DNA of 21,897 nt from contig JBBRSP010000051.1 of the NCBI GenBank assembly GCA_038245295.1, positions 1 through 21,897 on the forward strand. Reading direction: 5' to 3'. Of the stretch, positions 8,499-21,897 are shown one piece after another. Under the pieces are notes generated by a model. That model had not been told where the DNA came from and ran no database searches. It worked only from the letters and a program-made list of their open reading frames with translations. This DNA is from Candidatus Binatia bacterium (lineage in GTDB: Bacteria; Desulfobacterota; Binatia; HRBIN30). Every line of letters starts with the position of its first letter. Position 1 is the first letter of the stretch. Position numbers and translations under genes: made by a program.

Positions 8499-8903
8499 TC
8501 AGCAGCCAGCGACGCGTAAGCCGATCGCCCGGGCGGCGCGGGCCTGCCTGGCGTCAAAGGTTACGAATGGCAGCGCCGCGCCGCCGACTCTTTGAGCCGC
8601 CGACAGATGAAGGGCATCCAAGGTTCGGACGCCCTCGGCCCGGGCGATCTCGGCGGCGCGCTCGCATGTGACGCGGTCAAGTTCGACCACGTGGATACCG
8701 CGCCAATCACGTCGGAACGCCGACTCTATGCGAAGAAGTTCACGCCCTTCGAGCAGACGCGCCAGGTTGCGCACAACTTCGACCCACGTGTGCCTGCCGG
8801 TAACCCAACTGGTGTCGGACTCGAGAAGCTCGGCGGCGCGCTCGCTGTCGGCCTCGTCAACGTAACGCTTCAGCAGAGCGCTCGTATCGACATACTGGCT
8901 CAC
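8499..8903 (-). CDS. vapC: VapC-family PIN-domain toxin
   Basis: YVDTSALLKRY..E, E in TWVEV, RTLDALHLSAA, FVTFDARQARAA; start overlaps the antitoxin stop (GTGA). Confidence 0.9.
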   Translation of the reverse strand: MSQYVDTSALLKRYVDEADSERAAELLESDTSWVTGRHTWVEVVRNLARLLEGRELLRIESAFRRDWRGIHVVELDRVTCERAAEIARAEGVRTLDALHLSAAQRVGGAALPFVTFDARQARAARAIGLRVAGC

Positions 8904-9157
8904 GAGTCCCGATCCTCCGCGAGGGCGTCAGCAATGCGCCGCTTCGAGCGCGCCCTTCGGACAGACTTCTCCACCGTCGCGGTCGCCGCCTGGATCCACC
9001 CATCGGCAACTCCCTCGTCGAGGCGCAACCGGCCCGGGAGAGGGCCGATGACGGCCTTTGGGGTACCTCGATCCGTCACTCGAATCGTTTCACCACGTGC
9101 GGCTCGCTCCAGGTACTTTGAAAGGTTTTGCTTCAACTCGCGTACGGCCACGTCCAT
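8900..9157 (-). CDS. Phd/YefM-family antitoxin
   Basis: From ATG 9157: MDVAVRELKQNLSKYLERAARGETIRVTDRGTPKAVI, 85 aa, directly upstream of vapC. The track's N-terminal extension to 9355 looks spurious. Confidence 0.9.
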   Translation of the reverse strand: MDVAVRELKQNLSKYLERAARGETIRVTDRGTPKAVIGPLPGRLRLDEGVADGWIQAATATVEKSVRRARSKRRIADALAEDRDS

Positions 9158-9159
9158 GG

Positions 9160-9185
9160 GGACACAATAGTTTATCAATGTGTCC
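9160..9185 (-). promoter_or_regulatory. TA operon promoter/operator: inverted repeat bracketing an extended -10 element
   Basis: Minus strand GGACACA-TTGATAAACTAT-TGTGTCC-CC-ATG; palindrome arms flank TGnTAAACT immediately before the antitoxin start. Confidence 0.65.
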
Positions 9186-9266
9186 ACTTCAACGACGACC
9201 CCTGTCTCCCAGGGACGTTCCCATCGGTGGTCGCTTGAGTCATAGAGAACATGCCATGACCGCGTC

Positions 9267-9755
9267 GTGCTGACCGGAGCGTTCACCGTCGAGCCGCGGT
9301 GGTCAGTGAAGGACAAGATCGTGTTCATGCGCCTCAACGAATCGCTCCTCGACATTTACACCATCAATACCGCCGGGCAGGACCTTCGGCGGCTGACGGG
9401 CAACCAGGGCAACAATGGCGATCCGGCCTGGTCTCCCGACGGGTCCAAGATCAGCTTCGGAAGCGACCGAGAAGGTAACGACAAGCTGAATATCTTTGTC
9501 ATGAACGAGGACGGCTCCAATCCCGTGCAGCTGACCCACGTGGGCGTCCCGGAAGAGACGGGCGATACGAGTTGGTCCTCCGACGGGGACAAGATTGCCT
9601 TCGAGCATGACATCAACGGGAAGAAACAATCCGATCCGACCGCGCGCGCCGAGGTCTGGACGATGAACGCGGATGGCTCCGGGCAAGTGAGTACCGGGCA
9701 ATCCTGCAGCAACGTCGGCTGCGCCCCGCGGTTCGCACCGACGCGCCAGCCATAG
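9267..9755 (+). pseudogene. N-terminally truncated TolB-like (PD40-repeat) beta-propeller fragment
   Basis: DPAWSPDGSKISFGSDR, IFVMNEDGSNPVQLT, SWSSDGDKIAF, VWTMNADGSG. Only about three blades, no signal peptide, in-frame TAG at 9243. Confidence 0.65.
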
Positions 9756-9780
9756 CGCGTAGGGCGCTTCCTGGCCGCTT

Positions 9781-9873
9781 TTAGTCGCTTGCAAAAAAGC
9801 TCGCCGACTTGTCCGGCTTGCACCTGCGGCGGTCGTAGAGCTTGGTGGTCGTCGCGTCGGCATGGCCCGCGGC
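9781..9873 (-). pseudogene. C-terminal remnant of a tyrosine recombinase/integrase
   Basis: AAGHADATTTKLYDRRRCKPDKSASFFASD* matches the box-II (L/A)GH....TT..Y motif with the catalytic Tyr; no H-x-x-R or upstream domain is recognisable in frame. Confidence 0.65.
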
Positions 9874-10008
9874 TAGCCTGCGGCGTGTTGCAGAGGCCCG
9901 CCTGCGGATGCACCGCGGGCTGTGTATCTTCCAAACGGTTACGGTTTGCGGCGGCAATGCGCTTGATGGTACGCGACACCATCCGCAGGTCGCTGGGCAG
10001 GGGGCGTG

Positions 10009-10542
10009 ATGAAGCATCCACGAAGTTCTTGGCTATTGGCTTTTCCCATCTCGTCGTTGGCGGTGCTCCTGCTGCAACTCTCGGACGCGCGTGGCTAAAG
10101 CATCGCCCAGGAATTCACCCGCATCGGCGCCGGTGAATCGCTGGTCGTTCCTTTTGTGTCGCGGTCGGTGTCGACAACGAGCCAGTACGGCGGCCTGGTC
10201 GAGGTGATCGTGTCGGGAACCGGGACCAGTTACGGCCAGCTGGTAAACGACGCCTTCTATGATGTGCCGTCCGGTATCCCGGTTGACTACTCGGGTTCCG
10301 GCTCGCTGTTCCAAACCCGCTACTACCAATTGAACCTGGGTTGGCAGAATGGCTTCGGGCTCCTCGGTTGCGACGACGAGCCGTACAACATCAACAACGC
10401 CATCGTCTTCATCGACGGCGTGGGTAGCGTGAGCCCACCGGCAATGCCTTCGTATGAACCGGTCACGCATCGTTATGACTTTGTGGTCCGTGTGCCGGAA
10501 GACGCCGGTCAACTCAACTTCGGTGACGCAGACTGCGGCTGC
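10009..10542 (+). pseudogene. Secreted hypothetical protein with an in-frame nonsense codon, 3' end lost at the REP array
   Basis: ATG 10009 gives MKHPRSSWLLAFPISSLAVLLLQLSDARG*SIAQEFTRIG... (TAA 10096-10098), in frame with track ORF 10156; protein-like sequence ends at ...NFGDADCGC where the repeat starts. Confidence 0.7.
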
Positions 10543-10718
10543 TTTAGCTTGCGGCGGAATGCCCACGCTGAACCGTTCCATCCGGCGCAGGCTGAAGACC
10601 TGCGCCTACCTCACCGCCTCGATGCCGGGCCGTCACGGGGTAGGCGCAAGCTTTAGCTTGCGGCGGAATGCCCACGCTGAACCGCTCCATCCGGCGCAGG
10701 CTGAAGACCTGCGCCTAC
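10541..10718. repeat. BIME-like array of alternating inverted GTAG REPs, 3' of the RAYT gene
   Basis: Partial REP-A from 10541, REP-B 10584-10609 (GGCGCAGGCTGAAGACCTGCGCCTAC), REP-A 10640-10662 (GTAGGCGCAAGCTTTAGCTTGCG), REP-B 10693-10718; period 109 bp with conserved linkers. Confidence 0.95.
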
Positions 10719-11203
10719 CTGGTGGCGAGGCCGTCGATGATGGCTCGGAGGTCGTGGCCGATCGCACCGGTGAAGGGGTAATCCTCCCAGCGTTCTACGA
10801 GCCCGGCGCGTACCGGATTATTGGCGATGTATCGGATGTGTTTGCAGAGATCCTCGTCGCGCCGCATGACATGGCCATTGAAGTCCTTCTGCCAAGCGTG
10901 CCGCATGCCGGCTTGAGCCAGCCAGAAACCCGAACGTTGCTTGAAGGCTGACATCGCTGAGAGCGTGTCGGCCATCACTGTCGATCCGGCGAGTACCGTG
11001 TGAAGGTGATCCGGCATGAAGCAACAGATCATCGCGCTCGTCCAGGTTCCCGCACAGGCCAGGCGAAGGCAGTCGACCAGAGACTGGACAACCCGAGGAG
11101 TCGTGAAAAGCGCGCGTCGGCCGCGTGTACACGCGGTAAAGGAGACGACGACCTCGCCGCGGTATTCCTCCACGGGGAGGCGGTGTTTGCGTTCAAAGAT
11201 CAT
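10715..11203 (-). CDS. REP-associated tyrosine transposase (RAYT/TnpA-REP, IS200/IS605 Y1 HUH superfamily)
   Basis: RKHRL..Y, SFTACT, FMPDHLH (HUH), FKQRSG, WQKDFNGHVMR, YIANNPVRAGLV..WEDYPF (catalytic Tyr); flanked on both sides by GTAG REPs. Confidence 0.93.
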   Translation of the reverse strand: MIFERKHRLPVEEYRGEVVVSFTACTRGRRALFTTPRVVQSLVDCLRLACAGTWTSAMICCFMPDHLHTVLAGSTVMADTLSAMSAFKQRSGFWLAQAGMRHAWQKDFNGHVMRRDEDLCKHIRYIANNPVRAGLVERWEDYPFTGAIGHDLRAIIDGLATR

Positions 11204-11285
11204 TCCCGAATTGGATCACAGCGGCGGCGATGGCGCATTGGCTGCGCTGCATACATGCGCGAGCGCGGTGGGGCGCCGGAATTAC

Positions 11286-11473
11286 GGCGCAGGCTAAAGA
11301 CCTGCGCCTACCTCACCGCCGCGATGCCGGGCCGTCAGGGGTAGGCGCAAGCTTTAGCTTGCGGCGGAATGCCCATCCTGAATCGCTCCATCCGGCGCAG
11401 GCTAAAGACCTGCGCCTACCTCACCGCCTCGATGCGCGGGCCGTCAGGGGTAGGCGCAAGCTTTAGCTTGCGG
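11286..11473. repeat. BIME-like array of alternating inverted GTAG REPs, 5' of the RAYT gene
   Basis: REP-B 11286-11311, REP-A 11341-11363, REP-B 11394-11419, REP-A 11450-11472; same linkers as the left array, period 108-109 bp. Confidence 0.95.
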
Positions 11474-11493
11474 TAGTAGCCAGGCAACGGAAC

Positions 11494-12066
11494 ATGATCC
11501 TCGAAGACCTCAAGCACAAGACCGCGCTGTTCTACGGCGAGGTTTCTACCAGGCTGACTCTGCGTATCCTGCTGACCGACGGCACCTCGGCGATGATGTT
11601 GTTTCGCCTCGTCGGCTTCTTGCGCCGCAACGGGCTGGGCGCTCTCGGTTGGATCTTCGTGAAGGCCAACGGCATTCTCAACGGCTGTGTCATCGGCCGC
11701 AATGCCACCTTCGGCGCCGGCTTCGTGATCATGCATAGCCACGGCGTCGTCATCAACGGCGGCGTGCGCGGCGGCAACAACATCGTGGTCGAAAGCGGCG
11801 TTGTCATCGGAGCCGCACGGTACGGCCTGCCCGTCCGGGTTCCGACTCTGGGCAGCGATATTTTTTTTGGGTCCGGCGCCAAGATTCTCGGCGGCATCAC
11901 GATCGGCAACCACGTCACCGTTGGCGCCAACGCTGTGGTGGTAGACGATGTTCCGGATGGCGCCACGGTGGTTGGGATTCCGGCGCGCGTCGTCAAGATG
12001 GCCGAGATCGCCCAGCCGCCAGCCGAGATGCCGTCCGTATCCCCACAGGACCGGGTGGGGCATTGA
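11494..12066 (+). CDS. Serine O-acetyltransferase-like hexapeptide-repeat acetyltransferase, probably polysaccharide-modifying
   Basis: IGRNATFGAGFVIMHSHGVVI, PTLGSDIFFGSGAKILGGITIGNHVTVGANAVVVDDVP...VVGIPARVV; next to EPS genes. Confidence 0.88.
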   Translation: MILEDLKHKTALFYGEVSTRLTLRILLTDGTSAMMLFRLVGFLRRNGLGALGWIFVKANGILNGCVIGRNATFGAGFVIMHSHGVVINGGVRGGNNIVVESGVVIGAARYGLPVRVPTLGSDIFFGSGAKILGGITIGNHVTVGANAVVVDDVPDGATVVGIPARVVKMAEIAQPPAEMPSVSPQDRVGH

Positions 12067-13073
12067 AGGGCAAGACGCGGCTTCTGTCTGAGATCCTCTT
12101 CCACGCGCGCGCTCTGCAGGCGGTGAAAGGGCTGCTGCGCGATCGCGTCGTCGTGCTGAACTATCATCGGCTGCGCCCCGACGATGCGACGGCGACGACG
12201 CCGTTTGACGACCTCGTCTTCGGGCCAACCGTGTCGCAGTTCGAAGAGGAGATGGTCTGGCTGAAGCAGAATGTGCACCTTCTGCGTGAGACCGAGTTGA
12301 TCGACGGCCACCAGGCGCGGCGCGGCCCGGGTGAGCTGAGTGTGCTCGTCACCACCGATGACGGGTACCGCGACAACTACACACTCGCCTATCCGGTTCT
12401 GCGCCGCCTTGGCATCCCGGCCCTCTTCTTTGTACCGTCCGCCTTCATCGAATCGCGCCGCCTCGGCTGGTGGGATCAACTCGCCTACATCCTCAAGCGC
12501 TGCGCCAAGCCGCAAATCAATTTCGATGGCAGGGTATTCGACCTGCCGCGCAGCCGCCGCGAGGCATTCGGATTCCTGAATCGGCAAATCATCGACGCGC
12601 ACAAGGGAACGGCTCAGGGAGTGCTCGATCAACTCGTCGCCGTGTGTGAAGTCGATCCGCCGAGTAACGAGATTCAGGACGCCGAGCTCATGACATGGGA
12701 GCAACTCCAAGAGATGAGCCAGCACGATATTGCGATCGGCTCACACACCCATAGCCACCGCATCCTGAGCGGCCTTGGCGCCGCCGAGCAGCGCGACGAG
12801 ATGATCACGTCGCGACAGTTGATTGCGTCCAAGATCGGCGGCCCGGTGCGTTCGGTCGCCTACCCGGTCGGCGGTCGGGCCCACTTCACGGCGGAAACGC
12901 AGCGGCTGGCCCAGGACACGGGCTATGAGCTCGGCTTCTCGTTCTACGCCGGATTCAATCGATGGAGCACGATGAATCCGTTCGACATCCGCCGCACCGC
13001 GGTCGCCTATAACGATCGTATCGGCGTTGCCGCCGCGGCAACCCTGCCGGAATGGTTTACGTGGGCGACGTGA
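12063..13073 (+). CDS. Polysaccharide deacetylase (CE4/NodB family)
   Basis: VLNYHRL, TTDDGY, GIPALFFVPS, IGSHTHSHRIL, AYPVG motifs; TTG start overlaps the previous stop (TTGA). Confidence 0.9.
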   Translation: MKGKTRLLSEILFHARALQAVKGLLRDRVVVLNYHRLRPDDATATTPFDDLVFGPTVSQFEEEMVWLKQNVHLLRETELIDGHQARRGPGELSVLVTTDDGYRDNYTLAYPVLRRLGIPALFFVPSAFIESRRLGWWDQLAYILKRCAKPQINFDGRVFDLPRSRREAFGFLNRQIIDAHKGTAQGVLDQLVAVCEVDPPSNEIQDAELMTWEQLQEMSQHDIAIGSHTHSHRILSGLGAAEQRDEMITSRQLIASKIGGPVRSVAYPVGGRAHFTAETQRLAQDTGYELGFSFYAGFNRWSTMNPFDIRRTAVAYNDRIGVAAAATLPEWFTWAT

Positions 13074-13101
13074 GGTCCACGTTGACCGGCGCTCAGCTCA
13101 C

Positions 13102-13124
13102 CGCAGGCTGAAGCCTGCGCCTAC
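13102..13124 (-). repeat. Solitary GTAG REP between convergent genes
   Basis: CGCAGGCTGAAGCCTGCGCCTAC, same family as the RAYT-flanking REPs. Confidence 0.85.
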
Positions 13125-16617: not shown

Positions 16618-17895
16618 TCAAGGCCAATCCAAACGCCATGAATCAGACGCTCGCAAACCAACGAGCACAAAGTTGTGGTAGATCTCCTCGTGCGAACGCC
16701 CGGCGGCTGCCTGCGATGCACGGTCGTCGAAGTGCTCATCCTGAAACCAGAACTGGTGTGACAGCGTCAGGCTCAGCCAATCGGTGATTTTGTACGCGAG
16801 GCCAACGGTCGTCTGGTACACGTCGGTGTTGGACATATCGAGTTGGTTCTTCGAATACGTGAAGCCGGCGCCGAGGCCGAGGTGGCGTGTGATGTCATAG
16901 GAAACACCGGTCGCGGCCGTGTCCGCGGTCACGGCGCCGACACGTCCGACCGTCGTGCCCTGGCGGCGAAAGTAGGCCAGTGAGATGGATCCGTCTTCGA
17001 CGTGATAGGTCGCCGTTGCGGCCGCATCGGCATCGACGCTGCCATCCGAGAAGCGCGGCCCTGCCTGCAGCAACACATCCAACAACTCCGTGACACGATA
17101 CGCCCAACCGAGCAGCACGGTGTGGGTGGTCAGATCCTGATTCGCCGCCGCCTGGCCTTGATTGCCGAAGGTGAAGCGGTTCCACGCATACCCGACCCGC
17201 AACGTCTGATTGGCGTCGAGTTTCCAACTCAACGCCGTGTTGGCGATCTGCGAGTCGTTGGTGGCGCCGCGCTGGTCGGTTCGCTGAAAGGCATAACTCG
17301 CCGACGCGTCGAGGACGTGGCTGAGTTGATACGCGACGGACGGCGAACCCGAATACTCGTGCGCCGCGACGCGACGCGTGTCGAGATTGGTGGCCGTGAA
17401 CAGGGACGTGCCGCCATGCGGATCGATCAATTGGAAGAGATTCAGATCGCGCGCCGTGTCGGTGCCGCGGTAGAGGCCGCGCAACCCAAGCGTCAGACGC
17501 CGTATCGGCAGGTAGGTCAAGGTTGTCGTCGCCAGTTGCCGCGCCGGGAACGAAGTCAGACTCGAGTGCCGCGCGTAGACGTCGGCATCAAGACGATAGT
17601 CGGCCACCAGGGTGAACGGCTCCGACTTATACCCGGCGCCAAGCCCCGGGCTGAAGCGGGTAATGAAATCGTCTTCGCGCCCGACCGATGTTGTGCCGGT
17701 TGCCGGCGCGGGCGGATTCGACGGCGCCGAAAAGACATTGTCGTCGAATACCTCGGCCGTGGTGAACATGGGTGTGACATACGCCCCGGCCTGCGCTTGG
17801 GCGCCGCTCGGCCCCAGCCGCCAACCGACGACACACAACAAGACGACCCAGCCGGCGATCTTGAGCTTTGCCAAACGTCTTTCCCGTCTCCTCAC
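16618..17895 (-). CDS. Outer-membrane beta-barrel protein associated with polysaccharide export
   Basis: Signal peptide (AQA-QA), EVFDDNVF and DDFITRFSPG start, alternating aromatic/Gly strands throughout, located directly upstream of the OPX gene; GTGA overlap with the upstream gene. Confidence 0.8.
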   Translation of the reverse strand: MRRRERRLAKLKIAGWVVLLCVVGWRLGPSGAQAQAGAYVTPMFTTAEVFDDNVFSAPSNPPAPATGTTSVGREDDFITRFSPGLGAGYKSEPFTLVADYRLDADVYARHSSLTSFPARQLATTTLTYLPIRRLTLGLRGLYRGTDTARDLNLFQLIDPHGGTSLFTATNLDTRRVAAHEYSGSPSVAYQLSHVLDASASYAFQRTDQRGATNDSQIANTALSWKLDANQTLRVGYAWNRFTFGNQGQAAANQDLTTHTVLLGWAYRVTELLDVLLQAGPRFSDGSVDADAAATATYHVEDGSISLAYFRRQGTTVGRVGAVTADTAATGVSYDITRHLGLGAGFTYSKNQLDMSNTDVYQTTVGLAYKITDWLSLTLSHQFWFQDEHFDDRASQAAAGRSHEEIYHNFVLVGLRASDSWRLDWP

Positions 17896-20714
17896 CGCTT
17901 CCTCCTCGTTGCCGCTGCGCCAGTCGCGGTGCGCGATGCCGGTGGACGCTCAACGGCGTCCGCATCAACGCTTGGATGGCCGCGCCACTGGCGATCGCCG
18001 GAACCGACAATAAGCACGCCGCCGCTGTCGCTCACAACCGGCGCGCCGCCGGAGTTGGTATCGATCTGAAGTGTTAGTGTCTCGTCGTTCGTCTGCTGGC
18101 TGACATGATACGTCACGTTCGGCGCCAGACCGGTAATCAGATGCGTCGCCGTGGTGGCCGGGACGCGATAAGTCAAAGCGCCAAACGGAGCCTCACTGCG
18201 CACCTTGAACAACACGGCCGTCTTATCAACGACGGCACCCTCGTATGGCGTCTCACCCGACGATTCGATCAGACTGGGCGGCACCAACGCCGTGCCGAAG
18301 TCGGACCCTTGCACGACGTGCAGAAAGCGCGCGTCCGACGGATCATCGGGTGCTCCCACCACAAGAAGGGCGTTCATCGGCTCGTTGACGGCGGTTTCGT
18401 CGCGACACGTACACGACGGACAGCTCGGAGCGGCGCAGGCACAGACGCCGGTCGCCGCATCGACGTCGACGCAGTGCCGCGCCGCATCACTGTCGCAGTC
18501 GACGCGCTCGCCGCTTGCGACGGTGCAGGTTCCGGTCATCTGCCGTTTGCGTTCGATGGACAGGTTCGGACGCGCCGGCAGCAGAGTCGTGGTGTAGAGC
18601 TCGGCGCGCGGCGCGTGGGTCGAGACGCCGGCGACGGAATGCGTATCGTACACCGTCTGATGCGTGGTTTCGGCGAGGATGCGGGGAACCGCCGGCATCG
18701 CCAGCGTGAATCGTTTGAAGTGCCCGGCACTGCGGGTCGTGGCGCGATCATAGATGACAAGGAAATCGGGCTTGAGCCAGACCACGTCGCGTGTGGCGTG
18801 TACGACATCGTCGACCTTCTGACGCTTGTCATAAAGGTTGTATAACGGCGCGGCTTCACCACTCACGTATATGAAATTCGCGGCAAGGCTTTGGGCCAGC
18901 AGTCGCGGATCGCCGGCGGGCGCGTAGGCATACTGACCGCCGTGACGGTTCGACGTCGTGTGATGCGGTAGTGTGTCGCTGACCGGCAGCGGATTGTTTT
19001 GGATCGACATGGCGTTGTTGTAATCCGATCTCTGCGCGATCGCGCCATATCCGATCCAGCGCTTGGTGAGCCAGACACCGTTACGCCAGAGCTCGAAGCT
19101 GTTGCCGTCGCCGTGTTGGTGATCGATGCGATTCCAACCGAGGCGATAGTCAAAGTAGGTGGCGTTGATGCCCTCACCGTGACGCGCGAAGATGGCGCCC
19201 ATCGTCGCGTTGTCATCAAACGACGCGAAGACGTTTGTGGGTTGGTTGGCTCGGGGATCGAGGACCGCCGCGGGCGCCGTCGGATCGAACAGCAGGAAGT
19301 AGGTGATAGCGTCGATCAGGCGTTGTTGGCTGTAGCTAGCGCGAATACGTTCCGCGAGTACGCTGGCGCCGCCGGGCGCCAGATGGGTTTGGATATAGCG
19401 CACGGCCTGCAGGCGCGGCGCGGTGGTGCCGTGGCGGTAATAGTCATAGAGCGCCAGCGGCCCGAGGACCTTGATGAACTGATCATTCTGCCCATACACC
19501 TCGCCGTCGCCGAACCACGCCAGCTCGAATTGCGGGCCGCGCCACTCTTCACCGTCTACCAAGCGCGGTGCCGGCGGTAGATGCGAAAGAAACGCGTCAA
19601 CCGATTTGTCCCAGAACGGGTTGCCCTCCAAGACGACCTGCGATCCCCACCGCGACGCATCGTCCTGGCCTGCCGTGTAGAGGGCCAGCAAGGACAGAGC
19701 GACCGGACCGAGGCCGTTGGTCATGTACTCGAGTCCCTCTTGTGAACCGCCGCCGGCACCGTCGTGACGCAGGGCGTAGTCGGTTTGATACAGCCAGCCG
19801 CCGGTGCCGAGGCGCAGGTACCCCGTGTTCTTGTAGATCCATTCGTCCGGCGTGGCCCCAACGGTGTAGCCCGTGAGAGCGCCGGGCGGCGCGTCGTCAC
19901 CGGCGGCGCGCGGCACGTCGTCGGTCGGGTCGAGCGCCATGGGCATGAAGATCATCATCTTCAAGCGCGTTGCGTAGTGATTGTTGAGCGCCTCGCGGAC
20001 CGCCTGACGTTGATCGACAACGTCTTGCGGTGCCGGTGGAGTCAGGCGCAACAGAGCTGGATCGTTGACGAGGCCCTGTGGGTTCCACGGCGAGAAGTAC
20101 ACCGCCTCATTTGCCTTGCGTCCCCACCACAGGAAGGTCTTGCGGATCTTGCCGAGGTCGACGGCCGACAGAGCACCGGGGTGGGCTTGCAGCCAGTCCA
20201 CCGCCAGCGGGAATGCCTCGGCGGCGAATCCGCGATCGGCAAGAATGAAGTCGGGATGGCGAAATGGTGGATACCGCCCGTCGGCATCCGGTGTTGCCGG
20301 CCCGAGCACGGCCCGATCGATGACATTCATCAGACATTCGCGCGCCGCCGTCACATAGAGTTGCCGGCGCTGCGGATCCGTCTCCAGCAGCGAGACAAAG
20401 GCGAACAGCATGGCGTATTGTTCCGACTTGTAGTTGCTGTTGCCCGTGTGTGTGCCGCCATCGAGTTGTGGCACCTTGTGGCTGCGCCAATCTTCCAAGG
20501 CGACCTGGACCTGACTCTCGAACGCGACCCAGACCGGATTGGACGGCGTCATGCGCCGACGGAGCTCGGCGAGATCGGTGGTGCGCAGCAGCAGCCGCGG
20601 GTGTGTCTTCACCGGCTCGGCGCGCAGCACGCGCACGGCGACCAGGTTCAGGAGCACCATCAACAGAAGCAACGGCCTGCGTCGACAGGGTCGAGTCAAG
20701 CCAAGGCAATACAT
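17892..20714 (-). CDS. Secreted heparinase II/III-like protein (putative polysaccharide lyase)
   Basis: AGGAG RBS; signal peptide; HPRLLL start, NNH, EGLEY, HQHGDGNSFELWRNG, RDVVWLKPDFLVIYDR, RFLHVVQ motifs. Confidence 0.75.
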   Translation of the reverse strand: MYCLGLTRPCRRRPLLLLMVLLNLVAVRVLRAEPVKTHPRLLLRTTDLAELRRRMTPSNPVWVAFESQVQVALEDWRSHKVPQLDGGTHTGNSNYKSEQYAMLFAFVSLLETDPQRRQLYVTAARECLMNVIDRAVLGPATPDADGRYPPFRHPDFILADRGFAAEAFPLAVDWLQAHPGALSAVDLGKIRKTFLWWGRKANEAVYFSPWNPQGLVNDPALLRLTPPAPQDVVDQRQAVREALNNHYATRLKMMIFMPMALDPTDDVPRAAGDDAPPGALTGYTVGATPDEWIYKNTGYLRLGTGGWLYQTDYALRHDGAGGGSQEGLEYMTNGLGPVALSLLALYTAGQDDASRWGSQVVLEGNPFWDKSVDAFLSHLPPAPRLVDGEEWRGPQFELAWFGDGEVYGQNDQFIKVLGPLALYDYYRHGTTAPRLQAVRYIQTHLAPGGASVLAERIRASYSQQRLIDAITYFLLFDPTAPAAVLDPRANQPTNVFASFDDNATMGAIFARHGEGINATYFDYRLGWNRIDHQHGDGNSFELWRNGVWLTKRWIGYGAIAQRSDYNNAMSIQNNPLPVSDTLPHHTTSNRHGGQYAYAPAGDPRLLAQSLAANFIYVSGEAAPLYNLYDKRQKVDDVVHATRDVVWLKPDFLVIYDRATTRSAGHFKRFTLAMPAVPRILAETTHQTVYDTHSVAGVSTHAPRAELYTTTLLPARPNLSIERKRQMTGTCTVASGERVDCDSDAARHCVDVDAATGVCACAAPSCPSCTCRDETAVNEPMNALLVVGAPDDPSDARFLHVVQGSDFGTALVPPSLIESSGETPYEGAVVDKTAVLFKVRSEAPFGALTYRVPATTATHLITGLAPNVTYHVSQQTNDETLTLQIDTNSGGAPVVSDSGGVLIVGSGDRQWRGHPSVDADAVERPPASRTATGAAATRRKR

Positions 20715-20790
20715 GCGCCACTCCTACCCCGCGAGCGCGTTCCGCCGCAACGCTGCAACGGCTGACGGTAGTGGGCTCTTCCCAAGGGTA

Positions 20791-21083
20791 GGCAACGTCA
20801 TCCCGGCGGAGGCGGGGACCCAGCGTAACCGAACGCATAGCTACGTTTTCATCACTGACCCCCGGCCTTCGAGACTGTCGATTCATCGTTTGAAACTGCG
20901 CAAACACCTCCGTCATACCGGCGAAAGCCGGTATCTCGCCAGCTTCCGAGGCTTCCAGCATGGGGAGATCCCGGTTTTCACCGGGATGACGTTGCTCCAC
21001 TTTGGTTTTGCGACAGACTCCTTCACCGGGGATGACGTTGCTTCATTTCAGTCTATCGACAGTCTCCTTCGCCGGGGTGACGG
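20791..21083. repeat. Cluster of CGTC-tagged palindromic repeats including the inverted copy 2 of the ~145-bp repeat (20861-21001)
   Basis: CGTCATCCCGGCGGAGGCGGGGACCC at 20796; full doublet at about 20911-20991; half units CGACAG(A/T)CTCCTTC(A/G)CCGGGG(A)TGACG at 21011 and 21057. Confidence 0.88.
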
Positions 21084-21767: not shown

Positions 21768-21897
21768 GAGGCTGTCTCAAAACATAGGCTCACCCTTCGA
21801 CGGGCTCAGGGCGAGCGGACAAAATGTCTTTGAAAATCAACCAAGCACCCGCTCAGGCTGAGCCTGTCGAAGCCGGCTCCGCAAGGTTTTGAGACAG
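21768..21897. mobile_element. MITE with IS5-like terminal inverted repeats, containing a palindrome doublet; right end cut by the window edge
   Basis: GAGGCTGTCTCAAAAC (21768-21783) and GTTTTGAGACAG (21886-21897) share 12 bp of perfect IR as far as visible; internal CCCTTCGACGGGCTCAGGGCGAGCGG and CCGCTCAGGCTGAGCCTGTCGAAGC. Confidence 0.75.

Follow-up and report, generated by a model that had tools for sequence, protein, structure and literature searches.

A single-copy REPtron joined to a truncated gene in a Candidatus Binatia genome, and possible origins of the joint

A gene broken at the edge of a REP array raises the question of whether the RAYT enzyme encoded within that array made the break. 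In the locus analyzed here a RAYT (TnpA-REP) gene is flanked by two REP arrays, and the left array is fused to a coding frame, termed gene X, that has lost its 3' part. RAYT strand transfer was observed in vitro according to the available part of PMC3333891, and a literature search, with subscription papers mostly outside it, returned no report of RAYT-made gene truncation in vivo. A gene-breaking joint at a C^T site of an inverted REP (iREP) would be a rare natural test of such rearrangement. The original prediction proposed a footprint of RAYT-cassette insertion or of RAYT/REP-driven rearrangement. We found a single-copy REPtron of a mostly known kind, which gives no proof that RAYT genes jump.

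The window, i.e., the whole stretch of 21,897 nucleotides analyzed, is contig C51 of assembly G000 (6.63 Mb, 129 contigs, 96.6% complete). It was compared to 51 other genomes of the order, including 25 of the family. None of the genomes searched belongs to the same genus, and the state before the break is therefore unseen and the event undated. Contigs from two sequencing runs were also compared: X1, possibly the source sample, and X2, another sample from the same study; a third run, X3, yielded no matching contig. X1 contigs covering 8500-10570 and the RAYT gene were identical to the window, while the X2 contig 10149-10624 deviated by one letter. The latter crosses the left joint by 84 nt, the X1 contig extends 30 nt past it, and the right joint is bridged by the X1 contig 11442-13115 with 32 nt on its left side. 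The left junction is real. A misassembly through repeats, of the junction or of the link between its parts, would fit the lack of any single public contig across the whole cassette, the short X1 overhang at the left joint and the lack of X2 pieces at 10756-11265 (over the RAYT) and 11470-11673 (at the right joint), although a hole at a depth of 2.5-4 proves nothing. However, non-unique stretches of the cassette are no longer than about 54 nt (every third base sampled) and the two left REP-B copies share a loop variant absent from all other A-B units, which together with the bridging contigs makes misassembly barely credible.

The RAYT gene is located within a tandem array of a 109-bp unit consisting of REP-A, a spacer, inverted REP-B and a second spacer. 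Half an A followed by B, A, and B lies to its left and B, A, B, and A to its right, giving seven complete REPs and a half one whose orientations alternate (Table 1). The mapped coordinates bore out both the (A)-B-A-B and B-A-B-A anatomy proposed earlier and the loss of the first 10 nt from the leftmost REP. REP-A and REP-B hairpins folded better than 200 of 200 shuffled sequences (z -3.7 and -4.7). Likeness between the left and right arrays is 89-95%, and the two REP-B copies flanking the RAYT differ in their loop, suggesting that the array has contained the RAYT for a while. This nearest pair (10693-10718 and 11286-11311) is direct and inverted pairs are found one REP further outward, whereas the REPtron definition given in the available part of PMC2817692 has two inverted flanking REPs. 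Since the nearest flanking REPs are direct repeats, the RAYT could leave or enter an array in circular form; precise excision of tnpA-REP is known from E. coli strains (PMC3333891, part available).

Table 1. Features of the RAYT locus (positions in the window; strand given as + or -, or a dot where it does not apply).
Feature	Position	Strand	Remarks
Gene X remnant; likely signal peptide and unnamed surface domain also found in PEP-CTERM proteins	10009..10540	+	cut before last conserved strand
In-frame TAA, gene X codon 30, at end of likely signal peptide	10096..10098	+	X1 contig identical
Left junction interval	10537..10546	.	most likely 10540|10541, C^T step on REP-A bottom strand; bridged by X2
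REP-A 3' half, first 10 nt missing	10541..10553	+	
REP-B, loop variant private to left array	10584..10609	-	
REP-A	10640..10662	+	
REP-B; its GTAG forms the RAYT stop codon (TAG, 10717-10715)	10693..10718	-	
RAYT / TnpA-REP gene, 162 aa, single copy	10715..11203	-	NF047646; H66, H68, Y125, N129 kept
Codons for Asn109 and Gly110, replacing aromatic/His and invariant Asp (E. coli W99, E100)	10874..10879	-	
REP-B, same orientation as REP-B across the gene	11286..11311	-	
REP-A	11341..11363	+	
REP-B	11394..11419	-	
REP-A, complete; right end of array	11450..11472	+	joined rightward by X1 contig 11442-13115
Serine O-acetyltransferase-like (EpsC/CysE-like hexapeptide) gene	11494..12066	+	below curated cut-offs
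Polysaccharide deacetylase gene, convergent with wzc-wzz-wza	12063..13073	+	

A strict pattern for the cognate REP identified 287 copies in the genome. An IUPAC pattern identified 263 (reversed control, 0) and between 0 and 10 in each of the 51 other order genomes, 45 of which had none. Other A-B arrays of the genome are also ragged-edged, and three of them (C10, C22, and C28) begin inside a REP. No REP of this family was found within 700 bp of the five other Y1 genes of the genome, and we therefore regard the window RAYT as the cognate enzyme. It likely spread the approximately 290 REPs of the genome at an earlier time. A scan for sigma-70 promoters across 9700-11600 found no site and was uninformative, with 0.5 expected.

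Gene X is 51-57% identical over its domain to five aligned homologues, and a profile search retrieved 370 relatives, of which 149 were examined. PEP-CTERM-type tails were present in three of the seven relatives scanned. In 121 of the 149, G-x-x-D-x4-[DE]-N-x-G is followed by at least nine residues, while the window copy is cut just before D-N-x-G. Its frame continues through the left array to a stop at 10654-10656. The earlier reading of a frame without a natural end was thus correct, as the cut lies inside a conserved domain and homologues do not end there. The comparison it called for, with an uninterrupted homologue of 10009-10542 in relatives, revealed no empty site among the 51 order genomes; gene X was matched in G005 only, in two copies, one of which was seen beside an exonuclease gene. 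The TAA at codon 30 is a second lesion of gene X, missed in the original prediction. Upstream of the gene, a TolB-like PD40 repeat ORF (9267-9755) covers only positions 237-375 of a 418-position profile and begins just after a stop, and is likely a 5'-truncated remnant. The region 8499-9169 encodes a Phd/YefM antitoxin and PIN-domain toxin pair.

The position of the break depends on the native gene X sequence. DNA likeness to the G005 homologue stops at 10536, before D-N. At the third of the four variable motif positions 103 of the 121 homologues have F or Y and none has C, and C-G-F is found in 6 of the 12 homologues with a variable stretch starting with C. Judged from these alignments the native sequence was most likely D-C-G-F, which places the break most likely at 10540|10541, where it had first been put; a native C-G-C-F would permit any break point up to 10546. 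With a native Phe codon (present in 63/121 homologues) the joint repeats GCT and does not share it, and a clean microhomology join is then not at hand. The likeliest break falls after unit position 10, at a C^T of the bottom strand, on which the inverted REP-A lies 3' of REP-B. C^T steps occupy 14 of the 109 unit positions when either strand is counted, with five on the bottom strand. Only one of 24 array edges, the window's own, lies on C^T (3.1 expected by chance; edges taken from local alignment), and a general C^T signature at array edges was rejected.

The prediction that the cassette begins and ends with the same 14-mer was correct for 10541 and 11460, but the repeat carries no information, since two further copies lie at 10650 and 11351 and the genome has 26 in all. 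It consists of the REP-A 3' arm with one additional base, and 24 of the 26 copies have the usual 5' arm; a target duplication was therefore rejected. Excision of the cassette at the 14-mer would leave a frame that reads S-L-R and then stops, with no D-N-x-G in any frame. The missing 3' part of the gene did not turn up beyond the right edge of the cassette or, by motif search and profile scan, in any other part of the assembly, which excludes a simple insertion. A profile built on the lost strand as it occurs in 121 homologues had no true match in the assembly, its best hit (on C5) being rejected as the antisense strand of another gene, and a half-REP scan of the assembly revealed no reciprocal half-REP joint. 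Both absences suggest that DNA was lost at the left joint. A relocated 3' part could be missing from an assembly that is 96.6% complete in 129 contigs. Altogether, a rearrangement junction at a REP was supported, by the cut gene, the contig bridging the joint in a second sample and the homologues running past it. Cassette insertion marked by a 14-bp repeat was not, because that repeat is a REP arm, the REP at the right end is whole and gene X is not taken up again beyond it.

The RAYT ORF scored 89.1 bits against NCBIfam NF047646 (curated cut-off 80) and contains the HUH motif H66-L-H68, the catalytic Y125 and the Y---NP signature with N129-P130. Its description as HUH/Tyr-intact holds for these motifs and for the reading frame, but two other conserved positions are altered. 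Compared to 91 homologues from several phyla (41-56% identity), the window has Gly at position 110 where all 91 have Asp, Asn at position 109 where 89 have Y, H, W, or F, and Cys at position 60, which is usually Tyr. Among 44 more distant loci all 26 motif matches carry D or E at the equivalent of position 110. These changes should not be over-read: three deviations at 39 conserved columns are not unusual, as 23 of the 91 homologues have three or more, and six of the 91 deviate alone at a column that is invariant in all others. The best solved match was PDB 4ER8 (E 1.7e-11), and a gap-free HMM alignment to it maps residues 109 and 110 to W99 and E100. Active TnpA-REP proteins are described as having a GTAG-guide patch of W94, Q95, (W99), E/D100, and R104 (PMC6006769, PMC8266576, parts available), in which W99 is wedged between guide bases (PMC3479197, part available) and E/D100 is one of the conserved GTAG-contact residues (PMC6006769; PMC8266576). 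The window protein retains the equivalent W104, Q105, and R114 and has an incomplete patch due to the changes at 109 and 110, which make it likely impaired in binding the GTAG guide. A further caution is that the fold was predicted with confidence (mean pLDDT 91). As a naturally occurring variant, N109/G110 offers a ready means of probing how short-REP RAYTs recognize GTAG; no structure of such RAYTs exists according to the available part of PMC8266576.

A search for further RAYT genes, as originally suggested, found one close copy only in the genome, i.e., the window's own. Close RAYTs (49-55% identity) were present in four of the 51 order genomes and one of the 25 family genomes, at three different loci: beside a DUF499 gene in G031, beside a TPP enzyme gene in G013, and between holA and a ChsH2/thiolase pair in G025 and, judged by ORF likeness, in G028. 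The latter two belong to one other genus and share the locus. A related REP adjoins three of the four. The RAYT L022 (G013:C43), 50% identical to that of the window, lacks a REP of this family and is flanked by a different repeated palindrome (from ORF translations), possibly representing a switch of cognate REP. Metagenome contigs contained ten loci with close relatives (best identity 48%), while 72,556 plasmids contained no match at E<=1e-15. A tree of 96 RAYTs was poorly resolved and showed no donor. As the four closest order RAYTs reside at three other loci, the gene must have reached its present place at some time. That the locus varies from genus to genus but is shared by the two genomes of one genus agrees with infrequent relocation or transfer on a long time scale, as described for RAYTs in the available part of PMC5581495. 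Nothing ties this arrival to the left junction, and the accessible text of PMC8266576, PMC2817692, and 10.1101/2021.07.10.451892 reports no evidence of tnpA-REP mobility.

On the right, the acetyltransferase ATG at 11494 was predicted to follow the cassette by about 20 bp. It does, 20 nt after the 14-mer and 21 nt after the last REP, but the spacing is uncommon rather than unique: by rough gene calls a start-facing REP flank lies within 30 nt of a gene in 8 of 158 cases, and 26 of 204 REP clusters lie between divergent genes. In the search for what normally precedes the acetyltransferase only distant homologues of it were found (30-42% identity at six loci, and in 2 of the 51 order genomes), with no match at E<=1e-15 in the 25 family genomes. 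In G023 and G002 wza-wzz-wzc is continuous with the XrtA biosynthesis genes. This XrtA/PEP-CTERM polysaccharide operon is split in the present genome, with wza, wzz, and wzc within 11494-17895 on C51 and the biosynthesis genes at C4:179086-192883. The export genes end at a REP (13102-13124), and no REP or MITE ends were seen at the borders of the C4 part. The polysaccharide locus is thus rearranged, with nothing to link this to the RAYT. Upstream of the porin gene and wza, the region 17892-20714 encodes a secreted-looking protein of 940 aa that matched neither Pfam nor NCBIfam at E<=0.001.

The 4-nt loop of this REP family is the insertion site of a 134-bp MITE whose inverted ends measure 15 bp. 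The genome contains at least 29 full copies (e.g., C10:7162-7295), and the window has a copy at 21768-21897. Several copies have unlike loop letters on their two sides, which may result from recombination between copies or from misassembly. REP loops with an extra 6-base piece between two loop copies (C22:15803-16081, C10:169865-170146, C12:182074, and C43:160) are possibly footprints of the loop-targeting element. A second palindrome family (GTCATCCC type) occupies 20790-21045, and its end at 21020 resembles the MITE terminal repeat.

The reading that we prefer, at a probability of about 0.5, is that DNA next to an already resident REPtron was deleted and that host processes placed the break at the REP-A hairpin. 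A REPtron consisting of the RAYT inside its 109-bp A-B array would already have resided near gene X. A deletion would then have removed the 3' part of gene X, the intervening DNA and the outer part of the array. Replication slippage or end joining by the host would have fixed the break point at this hairpin, and the left array edge would thereby have been fused to the inside of gene X. We infer that the REPtron was present before the break, that the missing DNA was deleted and not moved, and that the joining was the work of host enzymes. The neighborhood shows decay besides the junction, namely the TAA in gene X, the TolB-like fragment and the split XrtA operon.

The RAYT is a possible cause of the break. 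It could have started the deletion itself by binding REP-B on the bottom strand and nicking C^T in the inverted REP-A, with the free 3' end joined to gene X and Asp110 lost later. The likeliest break is indeed one of the five bottom-strand C^T steps of the unit and lies 3' of REP-B, and E. coli TnpA-REP is described as cutting CT in iREPs and linkers, distant from the REP, and as transferring strands in vitro (PMC3333891, part available). Against this, C^T is a frequent step in the unit, the break is uncertain over 10537-10546, none of the other array edges falls on C^T, and a native Phe codon would leave a gene-side end that is neither a CT nor a CA site. Given the frequency of C^T and the single edge placed on it, we regard this course as doubtful. 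Alternatively, the RAYT and its arrays, perhaps with DNA to the right, took the place of the 3' part of gene X when they arrived through horizontal transfer or relocation. This would agree with the scarcity of close RAYTs in the order and their scatter over three loci, with a REP pattern abundant in this genome only, with an acetyltransferase unmatched in the family directly after the last REP, and with direct flanking REP-B copies, the form expected from a circle of RAYT and B recombining into an array. However, there is no duplication, no resumption of gene X on the right, no second RAYT copy and no donor in the tree, and the loop difference between the flanking REP-B copies, in arrays that are not identical, speaks for a residence of some duration. 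We consider such an arrival scar unlikely.

The more specific proposal that the joint is a natural footprint of RAYT chemistry is quite unlikely as a whole. By this proposal a REP-B-directed C^T cut of inverted REP-A was joined into a host gene, the REPtron moved or deleted its neighbor, and the enzyme was afterward disarmed by loss of GTAG-guide residues. If true, it would be genomic evidence of a "domesticated" RAYT rearranging chromosomes and then being selected against. The junction cannot carry a claim of in vivo RAYT rearrangement, because it is one undated joint in one genome with no close relative. A break made by the MITE transposase, either as an abortive insertion or with the inserted copy lost along with adjacent DNA, would explain why the junction lies within 2 nt of a REP loop. 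This MITE family attacks these loops: of 71 MITE ends, 64 directly adjoin half a REP at its loop, and the 4-nt loop is duplicated in 15 of 29 full copies. A stem-loop-targeting IS1182-family element has also been described near a small deletion (PMC5678879, part available). The joint contains no MITE letters, however, and a transposase gene with such ends was not found in the assembly, and we find this explanation very unlikely. The deletion beside a resident REPtron, with a break of host making, is the reading that we retain.

The closest known system is the E. coli tnpA-REP REPtron with its structure 4ER8 (PMC3333891, PMC3479197, PMC8266576, parts available). As in E. coli, the enzyme is a single-copy Y1 HUH protein with Y---NP and best structural match to 4ER8, alternating GTAG hairpins lie on both sides, the genome carries hundreds of REPs, and the stop codon lies within a flanking REP. 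The window differs in its short, near-perfect hairpins, in Gly and Asn at the E100 and W99 equivalents, in the direct orientation of the nearest flanking REPs and in the fusion of the left array to coding sequence. Short hairpins, a short protein, GTAG one base off the stem and a family-wide Asp at the E100 position resemble group 3 RAYTs, or TnpA-Y1 subclass 2.5 (PMC6006769, PMC5581495, parts available), a likeness by description and not by subclass profile; the window's subfamily spreads across several phyla at 41-56% identity. The Y1 fold, hairpin-guided cleavage and the lack of target duplication are shared with IS200/IS605 elements. Membership in that family was rejected, as its enzymes have Y---Q and many copies (PMC6006769, part available) whereas the window protein has Y---NP and one copy. 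An insertion element with target duplication was likewise rejected, the 14-mer being a REP arm and gene X not resuming beyond the cassette.
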